Source: an uncultured Actinomycetes bacterium
GTDB lineage: Bacteria > Actinomycetota > Thermoleophilia > Gaiellales > JALYLC01
Length of the DNA stretch: 64,000 bases
NCBI GenBank assembly: GCA_963713435.1
Contig: CAVQLU010000007.1
Coordinates: forward strand, 601,960-665,959
Direction: 5' to 3'
Made by a program: the position numbers and the translations under genes. Under the pieces are notes generated by a model. It searched no databases. It was given only the letters and a program-made list of their open reading frames with translations, and was not told the DNA's origin. Shown here piece by piece: positions 4,801 to 31,127 of the stretch (positions are counted from its first letter, which is position 1; the number at the start of each line of letters is the position of its first letter).

Positions 4801-6776
4801 GTGGGTGGCGATACTACGAGAGCCTTGGAGGGAATACAACGGAACGGACCCGGCGTCCACCCGCTCGATCCGCTGACGGCGACGGAAGTCGCCGCGGTGT
4901 CGTCGATCGTGCGCTCGCACGCGGAGTTCGCAGCGCTCAGCGAGCGCACGCGCTTCATCTCCATCAGCCTGCGCGAGCCGCTCAAGGCTGACGTGCTGGC
5001 CTGGGCGGCCGGCGGCGAGGCCCCGCCCCGCGAGGCCGAGGTGGTGATCCTCGACCAGGGCGCCCAGGCGACGGTCGAGGCGCTGGTCGCGCTCGAGCCC
5101 GCCGCCGTGACCTCCTGGCGTGCGGCGGACCGACATCCAGCCGATGGCGGTCATCTCGGAGCTGATGGAGGCCGAGGAGCTCGTGCGGCTCCACCCCGAG
5201 TTCCAGGCAGCGATGGCGCGGCGCGGCATCACCGACTTCGACGCCATCCAGGTCGACGCCTGGCCCGCCGGGCACTTCGGCGCCGCGGAGGAGGACGGCC
5301 GGCGGCTCTCGCGCTGCGTCGCGTTCATCAAGCCGCACCCCGGCGACAGCGAGTGGGCGCGCCCGGTCGACGGCCTGATCGCCCTCGTCGACCTCAACCG
5401 GCTCGAGGTGCTGCGCGTCGACGACCACGGCGTCGTGCCGATCCCGGCCGAGAGCGGCAACTACGACGCGGCGGCCGGCGCGCCGCTGCGCGACGACATC
5501 GCGCCGCTCGAGATCACGCAGCCCGACGGGCCGGGCTTCGCGCTCGACGGCCGCGTGCTGTCGTGGCAGCGCTGGCAGGTGCACGTCGGCTTCACGCCGC
5601 GCGAGGGCCTCGTGCTCAACCAGGTCGCCTACGAGGACGACGGCCGGCTGCGCTCGATCCTCTACCGCGCCTCGCTCTCGGAGATGGTCGTGCCCTACGG
5701 CGATCCGAGCCCGAGCCACTACTGGAAGAACGCCTTCGACGGCGGCGAGAACGGCGTCGGCATCGCCGCCTCGCCGCTCACGCGCGGCTGCGACTGCCTG
5801 GGCGAGATCGTCTACCTCGACGCCGTCGTCTCGGACGCAGCGGGCGATCCGCTGCCCATCCCGAACGCGATCTGCATCCACGAGGAGGACGCCGGCGTGC
5901 TCTGGCGGCACATCGAGTGGCGCGACGGCTCGGGCGAGGTGCGGCGCTCGCGCAGGCTCGTCATCTCGTCGTTCTCGGCCATCGGGAACTACGACTACGG
6001 CTTCTTCTGGTACCTCTACCAGGACGGCACGATCGCCTTCGAGGTCAAGCTCACGGGCGTGCTCTCGACCGGCGCGGTGGCGCCGGGCGAGCGGCCGGCG
6101 CACGGCACGCTGGTCGCTCCCGGGCTCAACGCGATGGTGCACCAGCACTTCTTCAACATGCGCCTCGATCTCGACATCGACGGCCAGGCGAACGGCGTCG
6201 ACGAGGTCTGGACCGAGTCGCTGCCGCCGGGTCCCGGCAATCCCGTACGGCAACGCCTTCAGCCCGCGCCGGCGGCGGCTCGCGAGCGAGCTCGAGGCGC
6301 GGCGCCGGGTCGACACCGCCTCGGCGCGCTGGTGGGAGATCGTCAATCCGTCGATCCTCCACCGCCTCGGCGAGCCGATCGGCTACCGCCTCCTGCCGGG
6401 CGAGACGACGTTCGCCTTCGCGCAGCCCGACGCTCCCGTGAGCAAGCGCGCCGGCTTCATCCGCGAGCACCTGTGGGTCACGCCCTACCGGCCCGACGAG
6501 CGCTACGCCGCCGGCGAGTACCCGAACATGCACCCCGGCGGCGCCGGCCTGCCCGAGTGGACGAGCGCCGACCGGCCGATCGACGGCGAGGACGTCGTCG
6601 TCTGGTACACGTTCGGCCACCATCACGTCCCGCGGCCCGAGGACTGGCCGATCATGCCGGTCACGACCGCCGGCTTCCTGCTCAAGCCGGTCGGCTTCTT
6701 CGAGCGCAATCCGTCGCTCGACGTGCCGCCCTCCACGCCACATTCGGATCACTGCCAACCCGGGAGCAGCACGTGA
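4801..6776 (+). pseudogene. Copper-containing primary amine oxidase (TPQ cofactor). Frame switches lie near 5110 and 6245, and the start is uncertain.
   Basis: It is collinear with Arthrobacter-type amine oxidase. Matching blocks include the TPQ consensus SAIGNYDYGFFWYLY, VVPYGDPSP, the His ligands HQHFFNMRLD, and the C-terminal block HLWVTPYRPDERYAAGEYPN...WPIMPV (ORF 6438..6776). Confidence 0.85.
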
Positions 6777-7488
6777 GCACAGTCGAGGGGCGCGTCGCGC
6801 TCATCACGGGAGCCAGCAGCGGCATCGGCGCCGCGACCGCCGCGTCGCTCGCCGCGCAGGGCGCGAAGGTCGCGCTGGCCTCGCGCCGCGGCAGCGACGA
6901 GGGCATCGCCGGAGCGCTCGCGCGCTCCTGCGACGTGCGCGACCCGCAGCAGATCGAGCAGCTGGTGGCCGAGACCGTCGAGCGCTTCGGAGGCCTCGAC
7001 ATCGTCGTCGCGAACGCCGGCGTCGGCGCCTACGGCGACTTCCTCGACATCTCGCCCGAGCACCTCGAGGAGATGATCGACGTCAACGTGAAGGGCCTGC
7101 ATGTACACGGTGCGGGCCTGCCTGCCGCACCTGCTTGCAGAGCTCTGCGGCCGATCTCGTCCTGGTCGCCTCGATCGCAGGGCAGCGCGCGCCCGAGGGC
7201 GAGTCCGTGTACGCGGCGTCCAAGTTCGCGCAGGTCGGGTTCATGCGCTCGCTCGACCACGAGCTGCACCGGCGCGGCGTGCGCTGCTCGACGATCGCCC
7301 CCGGCGGCGTCTGGACCGAGTTCGCCATGGGCGAGGGCCGCGGGCGCACGCCCGAGGACGCCGACCTGCCGGGGATGATGCGCGCCCAGGAGATCGCCGA
7401 CGCCGTCGTGCACGCCGTCACGCGGCCGCGCACGCATCGCGTGCTGGAGGCGACGATCCTGCCCATGAGCGACGACTCGATGAACTGA
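6773..7488 (+). pseudogene. Short-chain dehydrogenase/reductase with two frame switches (7095-7140).
   Basis: TGASSGIGAATA (TGxxxGxG), NAGV and YAASK (YxxxK). The GTG overlaps the amine oxidase stop (GTGA). Confidence 0.8.
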
Positions 7489-7502
7489 AGCGAGAGGAAT
7501 CG

Positions 7503-9620: not shown

Positions 9621-10414
9621 GCTCGCTCACGGTCTGCATCTCGGGCGCGCTCGGAGCGATCGGGCGCGAGCTCGTCCCGGCCGTCGTGGCGGCCGACGAT
9701 TTCTCGCTGCAGTCGGCGGTCGCGCGGCGCGAGCTCGGCCGCGACATCGGCGAGGCGCTCGGCGGCGCGGCGCTCGGCGTGCCGATCGAAGACGACATCG
9801 AGCGAGCGCTGGATCGCCGCCCGGACGTGCTGATCGACTACACGCACCCGGCCGTCGTGCGCCGCCACGTCGCACTCGCGCTGGAGCGGCGCGTGCCCGT
9901 CGTGATCGGCACCACCGGCCTGTTCGACGACGACTTCGCCGAGATCGACGCGGCCGCTCGCGCGGCAGGCGTGGGCGTGGCGACGGGCAACTTCTCGCTC
10001 ACCGCGGCCCTCCTGCAGCACCTCGGCCGCATCGCGGCGCGCCACGTCCCGCACTTCGAGGTGATCGAGCAGGGAGCAGCAGCGAAGCCGGACGTGCCGA
10101 GCGGCACGGCCCGCGAGCTCGCGGAGATCCTCGCCCGCGAACGCGCATCACAACCCGCAGCCGGCCCCGATCTGATCGGCCCGCCCGAGGCGCGAGGAGC
10201 GGAGATCGCGGGCGTCCCGGTCCACTCCCTCCGCCTCCCCGGAACGAGCCCGACCGTCGAAGTGATCTTCGGAGCCCCCGGCGAACGCCTGACAATCCGC
10301 CACGAAGAACAAAACGACCCCTCGATCTTCGTAATGGGAACCCTCCTGGCAGCCCGCCGAGTCCAGACGAAGTCAGGCCTGACAAGAGGCCTCGACTCCC
10401 TCCTCTTCGAGTAA
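9617..10414 (+). CDS. Dihydrodipicolinate reductase (DapB) family protein, non-canonical.
   Basis: This is an intact 265-aa ORF. It has the N-terminal GALGAIGRE Rossmann motif, VVIGTTG and KPDVPSGTAREL (the DapB substrate-binding block, but without the usual HH pair). The ATGA start overlaps the upstream stop. Confidence 0.75.
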   Translation: MSSLTVCISGALGAIGRELVPAVVAADDFSLQSAVARRELGRDIGEALGGAALGVPIEDDIERALDRRPDVLIDYTHPAVVRRHVALALERRVPVVIGTTGLFDDDFAEIDAAARAAGVGVATGNFSLTAALLQHLGRIAARHVPHFEVIEQGAAAKPDVPSGTARELAEILARERASQPAAGPDLIGPPEARGAEIAGVPVHSLRLPGTSPTVEVIFGAPGERLTIRHEEQNDPSIFVMGTLLAARRVQTKSGLTRGLDSLLFE

Positions 10415-10436
10415 CGACCACGCTTTGAGTGCACAA

Positions 10437-10683
10437 CCAGGGTCTGGCGCGTCCAGGCGGGGTCTGACCCCAGGTGTACGGGTCTGACCCCGCCTGTCCG
10501 TTTTGGCCTCTAGGCCAGTCGGCATGCCGGAAATGCCGCCCCGGCGGCCACGCTGACGAGCGACGCGCCTCGATCGCCAGAACGAGCCGAACGGCCTCAA
10601 ACGGCTTGGTTAAGCGAAACGGACACCTGGGGTCAGACCCGTACACCTGGGGTCAGGCCCGGACTGGACGCGCCAGACCCCAG
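10437..10683. repeat. Palindromic non-coding element: roughly 63-bp inverted arms, each an array of three GGGTC(W)GACCC units at 20-bp phasing.
   Basis: Unit cores start at 10440, 10460 and 10480 on the left arm. They start at 10630, 10650 and 10670 on the right arm. The arms are about 85-90 percent reverse-complementary. The element fills the gap between convergent genes (stops at 10414 and 10692). Confidence 0.85.
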
Positions 10684-10691
10684 ATGTTCGG

Positions 10692-12055
10692 TCAGGAGGG
10701 GTCGATGTTGTGGTTGTGGTGGAAGACGTTTTCCGGGTCGTAGCGGCGTTTGGCGGCCAGGAGGCGTTCGTAGTTCGGGCCGTAGGCTGCCTTGACGGCG
10801 TTCGAGTCCTGGTCGTCGCCGAGGTAGTTCAGCCAGCGCCGCTCGCGAGGTGGGGTCGCAGGGCTGCGTGCGCCTCTTGCGTCCACCTGATGTTCTCGTC
10901 GGTCGCGGCCGGATCCATCCAGACGGACGGGATCAGGAAGTTCCAGCCCTCCTCGCGGTGCGGCACGGCCGTTGCGCTCACGGGGATGCGCGTGACCGCT
11001 CCGTGGAAGTGCTCCAGCAGCATCACCGTCATCGGGGAGGGCACCGTCGCGAAGTGCTCGGCCATGGCGTCGATCAGCCCGTCCGTCAGGCCGCTCGTGA
11101 AGCTCGAGAGCCAGTAGTTGAGCGCTCCCTTCGGATAGCCGGCGTCGAGCAGCGTGTTCATCACCGGGTAGGGCATCGGGCCGACCTGCACCGCCGCCGG
11201 CGAGCCCCAGCCCACGAACGGCGCCAGATCGCGCTCCGCCTGCTCGGGTGTGCCCGTGTGGAAGACGACCATCGCGGCCAGCTTCATCCCCGAGCCGTCC
11301 GGCGCGTGAACCAGCCCGGCGAAGACGGTCAGGTCGTCCGAGGCGCCGGCGACTGCGTCGCGGTAGAAGCGGAGCATCTCGGGCCCGCGCGTCGATCGGA
11401 TGGGCGATCAGGCCGCCGGTGACCATGCCCACGGGCTGCAGGCGGTAGGTGAAGGTCGTCACCACGCCGAAATTGCCGCCCCCGCCGCAGAGTGCCCAGA
11501 ACAGATCGGGATCGGAAGCCTCGGTGACGTCGCGCACCTCGCCCTCCGCGTCGACGAGCTCGAAGGCCAGCAGGTTGTCGGCGGCCAGGCCGTACTTGGC
11601 CATCAGCCAGCCGAGACCCCCGCCGAGCGTCAGCCCGGCGATGCCGGTCGTCGAGATCGCGCCACCGGTGACCGCCATGCCGTGCGCGGCGGTCGCATCG
11701 TTGAGCTCGCCCCAGCTGAGACCGCCCTCCGCTCGCACCGTGCGGGCCGACGGCATCGACCTCGATGCCCTTCATCTCGGCCAGGTCGATCATCGACGCC
11801 GCCCTCGGCGACGGCGCGCCCGGCCACGTTGTGGCCGCCGCCGCGGACGGAGATGTCGAGCCCGGCGGCCCGCGCGAAGCGCACGCCGGCCGACACGTCG
11901 GCAGCGTTCCTGCAGCGGATGATCACCGCGGGCGAGCGGTCGACGAGGCCGTTGTGCACGCGGCGCGCGTCGTCGAATGCGTCGTCCCCGGGGCGCAACA
12001 CGCGCCCGGACACCTGGCCGGCCAGGTCGTCGAGGAGTGCGGGGTCAGGAGACAT
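10692..12055 (-). pseudogene. FAD-linked oxidase with BBE-like C-terminus, with about four frame switches.
   Basis: VRGGGHNVAG (FAD_binding_4), GIAGLTLGGGLGWL and NYERLLAAKRRYDPENVFHHNHNI (BBE tail). The pieces lie in ORFs 11630..12055, 11329..11793, 10692..11756 and 10829..11377. Confidence 0.8.
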
Positions 12056-28531: not shown

Positions 28532-29455
28532 ATGCAGATGACCGAGGCCCCGGGGGCCGGCAGCGGAATGATCGGCCTCGGCAACATGGGCGGCCGGATC
28601 GCTCGCCGGATCAAGGCTGCCGGACTGCCGGTGCAGGGCTACGATCGCAGCCCCTCGCAGAGCGCAGCAGCCGGCATCGCAATCGCCGGCTCGATCGCGG
28701 AGCTCGCGGCCGACAGCGACGTCGTGTTCCTCTCGCTGCCCGACTCCGAAGCCGTCGAGGCGGTCGTGTTCGGCGAGGGCGGGCTGCTCGAGAGCGCCCG
28801 GCCGGGGATCATCGTGATCGACCTCAGCACCGCGGCGCCGAGCTCGACCGTGAAGATCCACGCGGCCCTGGCCGAGCGCGGCGTGGACTTCGTCGACGCC
28901 GGCATCTCGGGCGGCGCCGCCGCGGCCGAGCAGGGCACACTCGCGCTCATGGCCGGGGGCTCGCAGCGGGCGCTCGCCGCGGCTGCGCCGCTGCTCGCGA
29001 CCTTCAGCGCCCACGTCTACCACATGGGCGAATCCGGCTCGGGGCACGTCGCCAAGCTGCTCAACAACTTCCTCAACGCGATCAGTCTGGCCGCGACGGC
29101 CGAGGTGATGGTCGCGGCGAAGCAGGCCGATCTCGACCTCGCGCAGTTCCTCGACGTCGTCAACCACTCGAGCGGCGTCAACTTCGCGACGCTCAACCGC
29201 TTTCCGAGGATCATCGAGGGCGACTACCTGGAAGGCGGCCTGACGAGCGCACTGATGGCCAAGGACGTGCGGCTCTACCTCGAGTACCTTCAGCAGGCCG
29301 GAGTCACGAGCTTCACCGGCCCCGCCTGTCTCGGAGCGTTCAATCTCGCCGGCGCACTCGGCTACGGCGATCAGATCAGCAACCGCGTGGTCGACGCGAT
29401 CGGCGATGTCGCCGGCGGCGTCCGCGTCCAGCAGAACCGGAGGACGGAATCGTGA
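28532..29455 (+). CDS. NAD(P)-dependent 3-hydroxyisobutyrate dehydrogenase family oxidoreductase.
   Basis: GMIGLGNMGGRIA is the Rossmann motif. DAGISGG and GSGHVAKLLNN are also present. The real start lies inside track ORF 28322..29455. Confidence 0.8.
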   Translation: MQMTEAPGAGSGMIGLGNMGGRIARRIKAAGLPVQGYDRSPSQSAAAGIAIAGSIAELAADSDVVFLSLPDSEAVEAVVFGEGGLLESARPGIIVIDLSTAAPSSTVKIHAALAERGVDFVDAGISGGAAAAEQGTLALMAGGSQRALAAAAPLLATFSAHVYHMGESGSGHVAKLLNNFLNAISLAATAEVMVAAKQADLDLAQFLDVVNHSSGVNFATLNRFPRIIEGDYLEGGLTSALMAKDVRLYLEYLQQAGVTSFTGPACLGAFNLAGALGYGDQISNRVVDAIGDVAGGVRVQQNRRTES

Positions 29456-29847
29456 GAATCGCCAAGGCCGGACGCATCGGCAAGCCGACCGAAGAGCGCG
29501 GACCGACGTTCACGGGCCAGGTCTGGGCCGACCCCGTGCTGGGCGGCGAGGACGGGATCATGGTCGCCAACGTGTTCTTCGAGCCCGGGTCGCGCACCCA
29601 CTGGCACACGCACGAGACGGCGCAGGTGCTGCACGTGCTCGCCGGCGAGGGCCGGTTGCAGTCGCGCGACGGGACGGGCGGGAAGCTCCAGGCCGGCGAT
29701 GTCGCGCACATCCCGGCGGGCGAGGAGCACTGGCACGGCGCCGCGCCCGGCAGCTATCTCCTGCACCTGGCCGTCTCGATCGGCTCGGTCGACTGGCTCG
29801 ATCCGGTGAGCGACGCCGACTACGCGAGCGCGACCGCCTCCGGCTAA
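29452..29847 (+). CDS. Cupin domain protein.
   Basis: This 131-aa ORF carries THWHTHETAQVLHVLAGEG...HIPAGEEHWHG (cupin motifs 1 and 2). Its start overlaps the upstream stop. Confidence 0.75.
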   Translation: MRIAKAGRIGKPTEERGPTFTGQVWADPVLGGEDGIMVANVFFEPGSRTHWHTHETAQVLHVLAGEGRLQSRDGTGGKLQAGDVAHIPAGEEHWHGAAPGSYLLHLAVSIGSVDWLDPVSDADYASATASG

Positions 29848-29887
29848 GTCGCCCGGCAGGGCGGCGAGGACCGCTGCCCGGTGCTTT

Positions 29888-30152
29888 CCGTGCACGCACG
29901 GGGTCTGGCCCGCAACGTGCGGGTCTGACCCCGAGCGTGCGGACCTGGCACCGACCCGTGCACGCGGCCGCAACCCCACTGGTCATGCGGGAAACCAGCG
30001 ACGCGGAACCGTGCGGAACTCCGTGCGGCGGTGGGCCTGAAGCGGCGCCAGGGCCGCAAAGCCCGATGGATAGGGCGATGCACGCACGGGGTCAGGTCCG
30101 CACGCACGGGGTCAGACCCGCAACGTGCGGGCCAGACCCCGAGCGTGCGGAC
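29888..30152. repeat. Second member of the GGGTC(W)GACCC phased-palindrome element family.
   Basis: Unit cores start at 29901, 29921 and (degenerate) 29941 on the left. They start at 30089, 30109 and 30129 on the right. The arms are related both as inverted and as roughly 46-bp direct repeats (29901-29946 vs 30109-30152). The element fills the convergent gap between stops at 29847 and 30153. Confidence 0.85.
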
Positions 30153-31127
30153 CTACCCGAGGGCGGTGGAGTCCGGTTCGTCGTCCTGCAGGGCGGCGAG
30201 GATGCCGTCGATCAGCGCTCGAGTGAGCATGAGCGACAGGAACTCCTCGATCCTCGGGACCCAGACCTCACGCTCCCCGGCCGGCGTGTCCGGCGCGAGC
30301 CAGGCCGCGATCCCCATCTCGCCGATGTGGCCGACCTGGGCAATCGCCATGGAGAAGTCGCCGCGCCGCGACACGCGGCCGGGACCGCCCGCCTCGACGT
30401 AGCTGCGGTACAGCGCGCGCGTGCGCGCCGCGTCATCCGCACCGAACTCGAACAAGGCGACCGCCAGCTCCTGGCTCCGGTCGGCCAGACCGCTGTTGTC
30501 CCAGTCGATCACGCACAGCCCGCCACCCGGCGTCGGCAGGACGTTGTCGGCCCACAGGTCGCGATGACAGGTCGCGAGGTCGCGGGGTGGCTCGAGCAAG
30601 CCCTCCAGCGCGATCAGCTCCTCGCAGCGAGCGGCCAGCATCGCCGCGCACGGCCCGCTCGCGGCGTCCATCGCATCGGCAAGCTCACGCCAACGCGTAG
30701 CGCCGACGGGATCCGTGTACCAGGGATCGAGGGGCATCGTCCCGGCGAAGCCGAGCAGGTGGATTGCGGCGAGAAGACGACCGACCGCCGCAGGATCGAC
30801 AAGGGGATCCGCCTTTCCGAGCTCGACCCACTCGTAGACGCGCACAGCGTCGCCGGCGCAGGCGAGCTGGATTTCCCCGTCCAGCGTCCGAACGACGCGA
30901 GGCGTCGGGATGCCGGCCAGCGTCGCTGCCTCCTGGATCGCGGCGGCCTCCACGGCCTCGCGTTCATCGAGCGGATCGAACGTCTCCTTGACGGCCCAAT
31001 CGCCCCGCTCCGTCTGCAGCCGCCACACCTGACCGACGACGCCGCGCGCCACCGGGCCGGTCAGCGAGAGTGCCTCGCCGAGGCCGTAGGCCGCTGCGAT
31101 CGCGTCCTGGTCGGCGGCCCGGAGCAC
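30153..31127 (-). CDS. Phosphotransferase (APH/choline-kinase-like) family protein.
   Basis: CHRDLWADNVL (HxDxxxxN) and VIDWDNSG are present. I place the GTG start at 31127, just after the upstream stop. The track ORF 30153..31589 is over-extended. Confidence 0.7.
   Translation of the reverse strand: MLRAADQDAIAAAYGLGEALSLTGPVARGVVGQVWRLQTERGDWAVKETFDPLDEREAVEAAAIQEAATLAGIPTPRVVRTLDGEIQLACAGDAVRVYEWVELGKADPLVDPAAVGRLLAAIHLLGFAGTMPLDPWYTDPVGATRWRELADAMDAASGPCAAMLAARCEELIALEGLLEPPRDLATCHRDLWADNVLPTPGGGLCVIDWDNSGLADRSQELAVALFEFGADDAARTRALYRSYVEAGGPGRVSRRGDFSMAIAQVGHIGEMGIAAWLAPDTPAGEREVWVPRIEEFLSLMLTRALIDGILAALQDDEPDSTALG

Follow-up and report, generated by a model that had tools for sequence, protein, structure and literature searches.

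We analysed a 64,000-nucleotide stretch of contig CAVQLU010000007.1 from an uncultured Actinomycetes bacterium (the window; G+C ~71%) and focus here on one palindromic repeat element within it, E2 (positions 29890–30148). We put at roughly 80% the probability that E2 is a non-autonomous, transposase-less 'TIR dimer' (TIR, terminal inverted repeat) of the TIRYT/TIRtron repeat family, a RAYT/TnpA_REP relative, mobilized in trans. The unit GGGGTCAG fits GGGGWSAS, the sequence shared by TIRYT inverted repeats, and E2 is therefore filed as a transposase-less dimer of that family. Full-length relatives carry the same kind of arms around a Y1 transposase gene; copies of ~240–290 bp, among them E2 and a second element in the window, element 1 (E1; 10431–10689), retain both arms and have a short polar centre in place of the gene.

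E2 is roughly 260 bp in size and comprises two 62-nt arms, each of three GGGTCWGNCCC units, around a 133-bp centre. The inserted DNA, including a left extension, covers ~29871–30149. Its parts are as follows.

29871–29889, + strand: left outer extension of the inserted DNA, CCGCTGCCCGGTGCTTTCC, 19 nt, absent from empty sites.
29890–29953, + strand: arm A, built of three 20-bp units (cores at 29901, 29921 and 29941); its innermost core has the family-typical form CCTGGCACC.
29954–30086, + strand: polar centre, with an A-side motif GGTCATGCGGGAAACC at 29981–29996, a B-side motif GATGGATAGGGCGAT at 30065–30079 and a variable middle.
30087–30148, + strand: arm B, likewise built of three 20-bp units (cores at 30089, 30109 and 30129) and inverted relative to arm A.

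Cores matching GGGTCWGNCCC exactly on either strand start at 29901, 29921, 30109 and 30129; the core at 30089 has one mismatch and that at 29941 is degenerate (GGACCTGGCAC). The core-to-core step is exactly 20 bp in both arms. These are the unit positions and the phasing given in a preliminary description of this DNA, which also had the spacers running in one orientation on both sides and the arms forming a direct repeat while still pairing as inverted repeats. All of this holds. On the top strand, both arms have the spacers GCACGCACG, GCAACGTGC and CGAGCGTGC in identical order and orientation. Compared in direct register, 29892–29946 and 30100–30154 share 93% identity across 55 nt; compared in inverted register, 29892–29953 and 30087–30148 show 89% complementarity across 62 nt. 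RNA fold prediction gives one long hairpin for an E2 single strand (−196 kcal/mol, z −10.5). E2 is hence an extragenic, hairpin-capable doublet of two inverted units, one of the defining properties of REP (repetitive extragenic palindromic) sequences and REPINs. Over the 64 kb, the two-unit pattern GGGTCTGGCNCG-N8-GGGYCTGACCCC matches the four arms of E1 and E2 only, where shuffles lead one to expect 0 matches, and the pattern GTGCACN3CNGGGTCTGGCNCG likewise finds E1 and E2 only; the inner part of the E2 left extension, GCTTTnnGTGCAC, is common to E1. The exact palindrome is confined to the two elements and occurs nowhere else in the window, so that it is not frequent inside genes.

E2 had also been credited with an arm topology different from that of E1, and this claim does not stand. 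Each arm is itself near-palindromic, since core, spacer and core are all close to self-complementary, and so direct and inverted readings of the arms differ only at the spacer centres. With the arms set in inverted register, the outer spacer is in the 'direct' state in 16 of 20 copies, including E2, and 'inverted' in the other 4, including E1. Two further loci, L098 and L099, encode an identical transposase and differ only by such a flip (GCACGTTGC versus GCAACGTGC). What looked like a topology of its own in E2 is thus a flip, and a frequent one, of a segment that has inverted cores at its two ends; it is not a separate architecture. E2 has the near-palindromic spacer in the state of the family majority.

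The proposal of a dispersed repeat family is borne out. An nhmmer profile of ~265 positions, built from copies in other genomes with the window copies left out, matches exactly two sites in the window, both at full length and on the + strand.

10431–10689, + strand: E1, in the same family orientation as E2, between the dapB gene and a BBE/FAD oxidase gene; 130 bits, E 3e-39.
29897–30147, + strand: E2; 126 bits, E 6e-38.

At both sites the profile scores ~50 bits better in the + than in the − orientation. The matches indicate that E1 and E2 are true homologues over their full length. The preliminary description had named, as the finding that would undo its case, two loci related only by a short palindrome that is also frequent inside genes; the homology is instead full-length, and the palindrome is absent from the rest of the window. 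The alignment of genomic copies that it proposed resolves conserved three-unit arms around a polar centre with a variable middle. Indeed, among 23 aligned pairs the interior reads ..CCTGGCACCGACC..TAGGCATGCGGRAA.. on one side and ..GGCNTGGTTGAGCGGAT.. on the other, and the CGGRAAA-type motifs that had been noticed in both window centres are part of the family-conserved ..TAGGCATGCGGRAA...

The family is concentrated in relatives of the window genome. A relaxed two-unit pattern, scanned against a genome collection, gave at least 97 stretches; those listed come mostly from metagenome-assembled genomes (MAGs) of uncultured soil Actinomycetota ('Actinomycetes' MFD bins, Gaiellales, Thermoleophilaceae and Actinomycetota AFD bin29), and many of them hold a +/− pair ~210 bp apart. 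The loci that we fetched contain 32 full copies (mostly 244–289 bp by profile) and ~90 solo arms, mostly from Gaiellales-like Actinomycetota MAGs; the window DapB is itself closest to proteins of Gaiellales or other Actinomycetota MAGs (69–81% identity). A phage origin was considered as well: the pattern has 0 matches among 2.9 million viral contigs. A metagenome scan with the window-specific left end gave 93 stretches with 3 real copies and no transposase gene, and a literature search on the core sequence gave unrelated papers only.

Candidate identities for the centre were tried and set aside. A structured RNA was dropped when RNAalifold on 29 copies paired the arms only and gave no conserved structure in the centre. 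A coding centre was rejected: the apparent ATGCCCAAGAAG.. open reading frame (ORF) of some copies has in-frame stops in others. Descent of the centre from the transposase gene region by deletion found no convincing similarity by eye.

The insertion of E2 can be reconstructed by comparison with empty sites. The features of the locus are as follows.

29452–29847, + strand: cupin-domain gene, left neighbour of E2 (Pfam Cupin_2, 3.5e-12), its last ~9 codons lying in the left duplicate; an exact look-up of its protein gave no record.
29820–29870: left copy of the target duplication, ~51 bp; the functional 3′ end of the cupin gene with its stop comes first, and after it a non-coding remnant of the kinase 3′ end.
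30153–30202: right copy of the target duplication, holding the kinase 3′ end; 39 positions are identical to the left copy.
30153–31127, − strand: APH-family kinase gene, right neighbour of E2 (Pfam APH, 7e-19).

The cupin gene ends at 29847 and the minus-strand kinase stop occupies 30153–30155, as the preliminary description had them, leaving a gap of 305 bp between the two stops. Three orthologues of the kinase place the locus in its occupied and empty states.

P0121: 97% identity, 324 aa, locus L105, occupied, with a 305-bp gap.
P0122: 83% identity, 316 aa, locus L104, empty site.
P0123: 80% identity, 327 aa, locus L106, empty site.

L104 and L106 have no element, and there the convergent cupin and kinase genes share a 4-bp overlap. 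The sequence ..CTACACGAGCGCGGTGGAATCCGGTTAGTCGCCGGCCAGGGCGGCGAGAA.., single-copy at both empty sites, is present twice in the window, in direct orientation, bracketing the inserted DNA. This shows that the site at which E2 arrived was at first a 4-bp overlap of the two genes. A target segment of ~51 bp now stands on both sides of E2, and both genes have consequently kept a usable 3′ end. A check for target-site duplications at the element borders, as had been proposed, is thus positive, in an unexpected form.

The kinase did not come through unchanged. Its ancestral stop is lost (TTA to TTC) and the ORF is 8 codons longer (EPDSTALG), reading into the relic of the cupin end as far as the TAG at 30153–30155. 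The longer ORF accounts for the 324 aa of the window protein and of its 97% relative, against 312–316 aa in most other listed orthologues. In the right arm, the final spacer (CGAGCGTGCG) is similar to the target sequence immediately upstream of the segment that is duplicated (GAGCGACGCC; window 30140–30160 versus 29808–29830), which blurs the right border of E2 by a few bases; this likeness could be chance, or microhomology used at insertion.

Arms of the family surround a Y1 transposase gene at six loci (L066, L098/L099, L100/L101, L102, L103 and the degraded L002); either side of the gene has GGGGTCAG / CTGACCCC, in inverted orientation. In related Actinomycetota the family arm has 3–4 units of GGGGTC-W-GACCCC with a 7–9-nt spacer, in 20-bp phase, and at the transposase loci examined the transposase stop codon falls inside the innermost right unit. 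The version in L066 (5653–6557; MAG MFD05942) is 905 bp long, its centre being an ORF of 241 aa with the following matches.

Pfam Y1_Tnp: 3.6e-10.
Pfam HTH_23 (3.9e-5) and HTH_38 (9e-5), residues 204–237: both below gathering scores.
NCBIfam REP_Tyr_transpos: 75.1 bits, cutoff 80.
E. coli TnpA_REP (4ER8), by sequence search of the PDB: 3.3e-5, with the HxH motif (HSH/HMH) and the catalytic Tyr aligned.

His60, His62 and Tyr119 are invariant in 40 homologues. An AlphaFold model of P0010 (pLDDT 85.9) has 4ER8 as its closest structure (E 2.6e-8, TM 0.73), followed by the IS200, IS608 and ISDra2 transposases, and ends in three C-terminal helices (203–238); PF13384 is precomputed for many of the homologues. 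These results show that the partner gene encodes a Y1 HUH nuclease with a C-terminal helix-turn-helix (HTH).

The 359 homologues are ~240 aa long, and many are named RayT or REP-associated tyrosine transposase at source, several from Gaiellales. Many lie on contigs of only ~900 bp, as expected if assembly breaks in the flanking repeats. MAG MFD05942 has the intact gene of L066 together with at least 7 dispersed copies of matching spacer type (L005, L045, L065, L076, L087, L093 and L096). An aconitase-family gene lies a short way upstream of the transposase gene in L066, L098 and L100, and L098 and L100 have abhydrolase, HMGL-like and NAD-binding dehydrogenase genes in common downstream. Retention of chromosomal position across MAGs (L066, L098/L099, L100/L101) suggests that the transposase gene is single-copy and vertically inherited. 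In L002 the transposase gene (6640–7362, − strand) is frameshifted and degraded, with arms still recognizable at 6543–6620 and 7440–7500; it is an example of a decaying TIRtron.

Duplications like that around E2 recur in the family. We compared the 260-nt flanks of 31 copies with a null of mismatched flank pairs (95th percentile score 14), and 9 of the 31 copies have flanking duplications above it, of 28–125 bp. They include the following.

L026: 125 bp at 88% identity; unique sequence from a gene end.
L071: 116 bp at 90%; unique sequence from a gene end.
L091: 67 bp at 91%; unique sequence from a gene end.
L062: at least 28 bp, truncated where the locus ends.
E2: ~51 bp, confirmed by comparison with the empty sites.
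L005: 43 bp, perfect, 978–1020 and 1286–1328; the target is a second hairpin repeat.
L076: 35 bp, perfect, 2433–2467 and 2747–2781; the target is the second hairpin repeat.
L096: 33 bp, near-perfect, 2487–2519 and 2806–2838; the target is the second hairpin repeat.

A fixed short target duplication was found in none of the 31 copies. The long duplications can be read in two ways, as the normal product of insertion that later decays or as rare sole survivors at abutting gene ends; a literature search found no description of long target duplications for REP or TIR repeats. The second hairpin repeat, GCCAAGTGGCACTCGCCGCGAGTGCCACTTGGC, is a near-perfect 33-bp hairpin that lies beside many copies in the MFD MAGs, often on both sides (L087 and L093 also have it). 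The hairpin could be favoured as a target, or could form a REP-like family of its own that clusters in those gaps.

The element borders carry scars of another kind. At 110 element ends there are 10 tandem duplications of the outer spacer plus half a core (in L003, L018, L026, L055, L062 at both ends, L076 and L083, and in L131 versus L152). For nine of the 10, the junction can be placed exactly at GGGGTC^W, where the outermost core has its dyad centre. One is polymorphic between the near-identical metagenome loci L131 and L152, its junction lying one base further in. Small as the sample is, these scars suggest site-specific breakage and rejoining at the palindrome centre.

Both window elements lie between convergent genes, from which an insertion preference or function at 3′ ends had been proposed. 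Gene contexts were called by a simple codon-position G+C caller and are approximate; the caller recovered the Pfam-supported genes beside E2 and mis-called the oxidase gene beside E1. The 27 classifiable full copies divide into 13 convergent, 8 tandem and 6 divergent, with 0 inside a gene. Convergent ends are enriched, and to that extent the proposal stands; convergence is not the rule, with 14 of the 27 in tandem or divergent settings.

We propose that copies such as E2 would be mobilized in trans by a cognate transposase encoded elsewhere in the genome. The enzyme would recognize the phased palindromic cores, possibly on double-stranded DNA via its HTH, and would cut at or beside the dyad centre, GGGGTC^W. 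Insertion would proceed via widely staggered breaks or a replication-coupled step, duplicating tens of base pairs of target.

Several points weigh against this reading of E2. The REP_Tyr_transpos score of the L066 protein is just under the curated cutoff, and its HTH matches in Pfam fall below the gathering thresholds. A tblastn search found no transposase homologue in the 64-kb window, so that we infer mobilization of E2 in trans on the assumption of a cognate enzyme. We know of no experiment in which TIRYT repeats were mobilized in trans. Flanking duplications are present in no more than 9 of the 31 copies. Moreover, IS200/IS605 elements make no target repeats, and long target duplications are not what the single-strand mechanism of Y1 enzymes of that type predicts (PMC3333891, PMC2817692); the mechanism by which REP/RAYT repeats spread has been called unknown (PMC3333891).

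In a more novel reading, the family would insert by a route unlike the 'single-strand peel-and-paste' of IS200/IS605, with a nick by the enzyme at the dyad centre of the GGGGTC^WGACCCC cores, as made by rolling-circle Rep proteins at a hairpin loop, and with widely staggered, replication-coupled or repair-coupled integration that leaves variable duplications of 28–125 bp. We offer this route tentatively and give it clearly less than an even chance. Both 3′ ends could survive the arrival of an element in convergent genes that overlap, and, if the reading is true, the duplication footprints would be the first concrete handle on the spread of REP/TIR-type repeats.

The same footprints could be had from spread that needs no transposase. 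A stalled fork or broken end would copy the hairpin-prone element by template switching or break-induced copying, or would capture it by end joining, and re-entry into the original template upstream of the exit point would leave long, variable target duplications. Duplications that are long and variable (28–125 bp) indeed suit a fixed transposase stagger less well than they suit template switching or the filling-in of long overhangs; ragged borders, extra half units and the 19-nt outer extension fit as well, and a different subfamily member at the E1 site of a close relative suggests copy replacement by recombination. Such spread does not, however, account for the same arms around every examined transposase gene of the clade, with a spacer type that co-varies with transposase lineage, nor for copies with well-defined shared ends (the ~265-position profile). 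The clustering of border-duplication junctions at the dyad centre of the outermost core also suggests site-specific cleavage. We consider transposase-independent spread unlikely, though it is the strongest of the competing explanations.

E2 might instead have been selected by the host, as a bidirectional terminator or RNA-stabilizing hairpin, or as a phased binding array for a dimeric protein, whose cores lie two helical turns from each other along a single face of the DNA. The very stable predicted hairpin, the perfect, 20-bp-phased core palindromes and the 13 of 27 copies between convergent genes with none intragenic speak for selection, and for E. coli REPs, binding of IHF and gyrase and effects on termination and mRNA stability are reported (PMC6006769). 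Yet a scan of 29600–30400 found no terminator-like T tract and no promoter consensus, and neither the window nor four loci with copies gave an Rfam match at gathering thresholds. Compensatory changes in the arms track the two spacer subfamilies, as for inverted repeats evolving in concert; half of the copies are in non-convergent contexts, and related genomes do well with overlapping genes and no element. The probability of host selection as the origin of E2 is small, and a host role in separating or insulating convergent transcripts, if any, would be secondary. Even less credible is a classical MITE (a miniature transposable element with inverted repeats) whose parent would be an insertion sequence of the DDE type that has long terminal inverted repeats. 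Long inverted arms, a size of ~260 bp, many copies and intergenic location are all MITE-like, but the coding elements found with these termini encode only the Y1 HUH enzyme, the 31 copies have no short duplication of fixed length, and the arms are arrays of a palindromic unit rather than a simple TIR. We regard this origin as very improbable, and retain that of a TIR dimer mobilized in trans by a Y1 transposase.

Further observations concern sequences outside E2. The E1 site of a close relative (L107, 3264–3600; DapB 94% identical and flanking coding DNA near-identical over window 10380–10740) holds a different subfamily member, with different spacers in both arms, a centre that cannot be aligned with that of E1 and no 19-nt left extension. 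The difference points to in-situ replacement or independent re-insertion rather than to ordinary divergence. The BBE/FAD oxidase ORF on the other side of E1 (window 10692–11756, − strand) has only a partial FAD_binding_4 match, at its N terminus; the gene caller chose another frame for 10829–11377, and the orthologue called in L107 has only 244 aa. The oxidase gene may be truncated or frameshifted. Arrays of the core GGGGTCWGACCCC, tandem or inverted and often with a period of ~20 bp, are also found in unrelated phyla: in Lachnospiraceae (L004, L006 and L008; ~40% G+C), Halomonas (L019), Acidobacteriota (L025), Burkholderiales (L040), Woeseiaceae (L047) and Bacteroidaceae (L052), one host being a Firmicute of low G+C. 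L012 has part of a Y1 transposase homologue at a distance of 4 kb from a core pair of this kind. These cross-phylum arrays fit the wide distribution of GGGGWSAS-type TIR families.

REP-type repeats and domesticated tyrosine transposases are abundant in bacteria, and their spread is still described as unknown. The E2 locus provides a natural before-and-after comparison, with two empty and two occupied sites and exact borders, for a poorly studied TIRYT branch in uncultured soil Actinomycetota. It indicates that insertion can bring target duplications of tens of base pairs and can remodel gene ends, in this case adding 8 residues to a kinase and separating two overlapping genes. The clustering of scars at the palindrome centre gives a testable prediction of the cleavage site. 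For annotation, the family accounts for a recurrent 'phased palindrome' feature and for many ~900-bp metagenome contigs that carry the transposase gene alone.

The closest known systems are TIRYTs or TIRtrons, in which RAYT-like genes are flanked by inverted repeats sharing GGGGWSAS and the TIR repeats occur singly, as dimers or in clusters (Di Nocera et al. 2013, PMC3733652). Most TIRYT genes fall in TnpA_Y1 subclass 2.1, with a C-terminal HTH_23/HTH_28 domain and no canonical REP (Quentin et al. 2018, PMC6006769). The full-length relatives of E2 likewise encode a RAYT-like Y1 HUH protein with a C-terminal domain of the HTH_23 type, the gene lies between GGGGWSAS inverted repeats (here GGGGTCAG), the repeats are dispersed as singles, dimers and clusters, and there is no GT[AG]G-footed REP hairpin. 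The E2 family differs in its hosts, which are Gaiellales-like Actinomycetota; PMC3733652 and PMC6006769 mention Stenotrophomonas, Acidobacteria and others, and the word Actinobacteria is absent from their main text. Its arm is a strict 20-bp-phased array of 3–4 perfect 13-bp palindromes and its dispersed unit a dimer of ~240–290 bp with a polar, partly conserved centre. Several copies have target duplications of 28–125 bp, which those two papers do not describe.

With REPIN-RAYT or REPtron-BIME systems (Nunvar 2010; Bertels & Rainey 2011; Ton-Hoang 2012) the family shares a single-copy Y1 gene flanked by repeats thought to be disseminated by its product, extragenic inverted doublets that can fold into a long hairpin, and TnpA_REP (4ER8) as the closest solved structure. 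It has neither the conserved 5′ GT[AG]G tetranucleotide nor the imperfect REP hairpin of 20–40 nt. Its units (GGGGTC-W-GACCCC, the spacers being of the kind of GCAACGTGC) form phased arrays of short perfect palindromes and have no conserved GTAG/GTGG foot across subfamilies, its protein is ~75 aa longer and has the HTH, and its elements are 2–3 times the typical length of a REPIN. Hence, E2 works like a REPIN but falls outside the canonical definition of a REP because it lacks a GT[AG]G-footed hairpin. IS200/IS605 elements and PATEs have the Y1 HUH core (Pfam Y1_Tnp) in common with the E2 family, together with structural similarity to the IS200, IS608 and ISDra2 transposases; IS200/IS605 elements lack terminal inverted repeats and target duplication, whereas E2 has 62-nt arms and a duplication of ~51 bp. 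Bacterial MITEs (Correia, ERIC and RUP) are similarly small, noncoding and intergenic, with inverted ends and high copy number. They are, however, derived from or moved by DDE enzymes and make short, fixed duplications such as TA, in contrast to the Y1 partner and the long, variable duplications of the E2 family. E2 belongs to a known kind of element, the repeats dispersed by a REP/TIR-associated tyrosine transposase. What is new in it is the host lineage, the strictly phased multi-unit arms, the ~260-bp dimer with a polar centre and the long target duplications.

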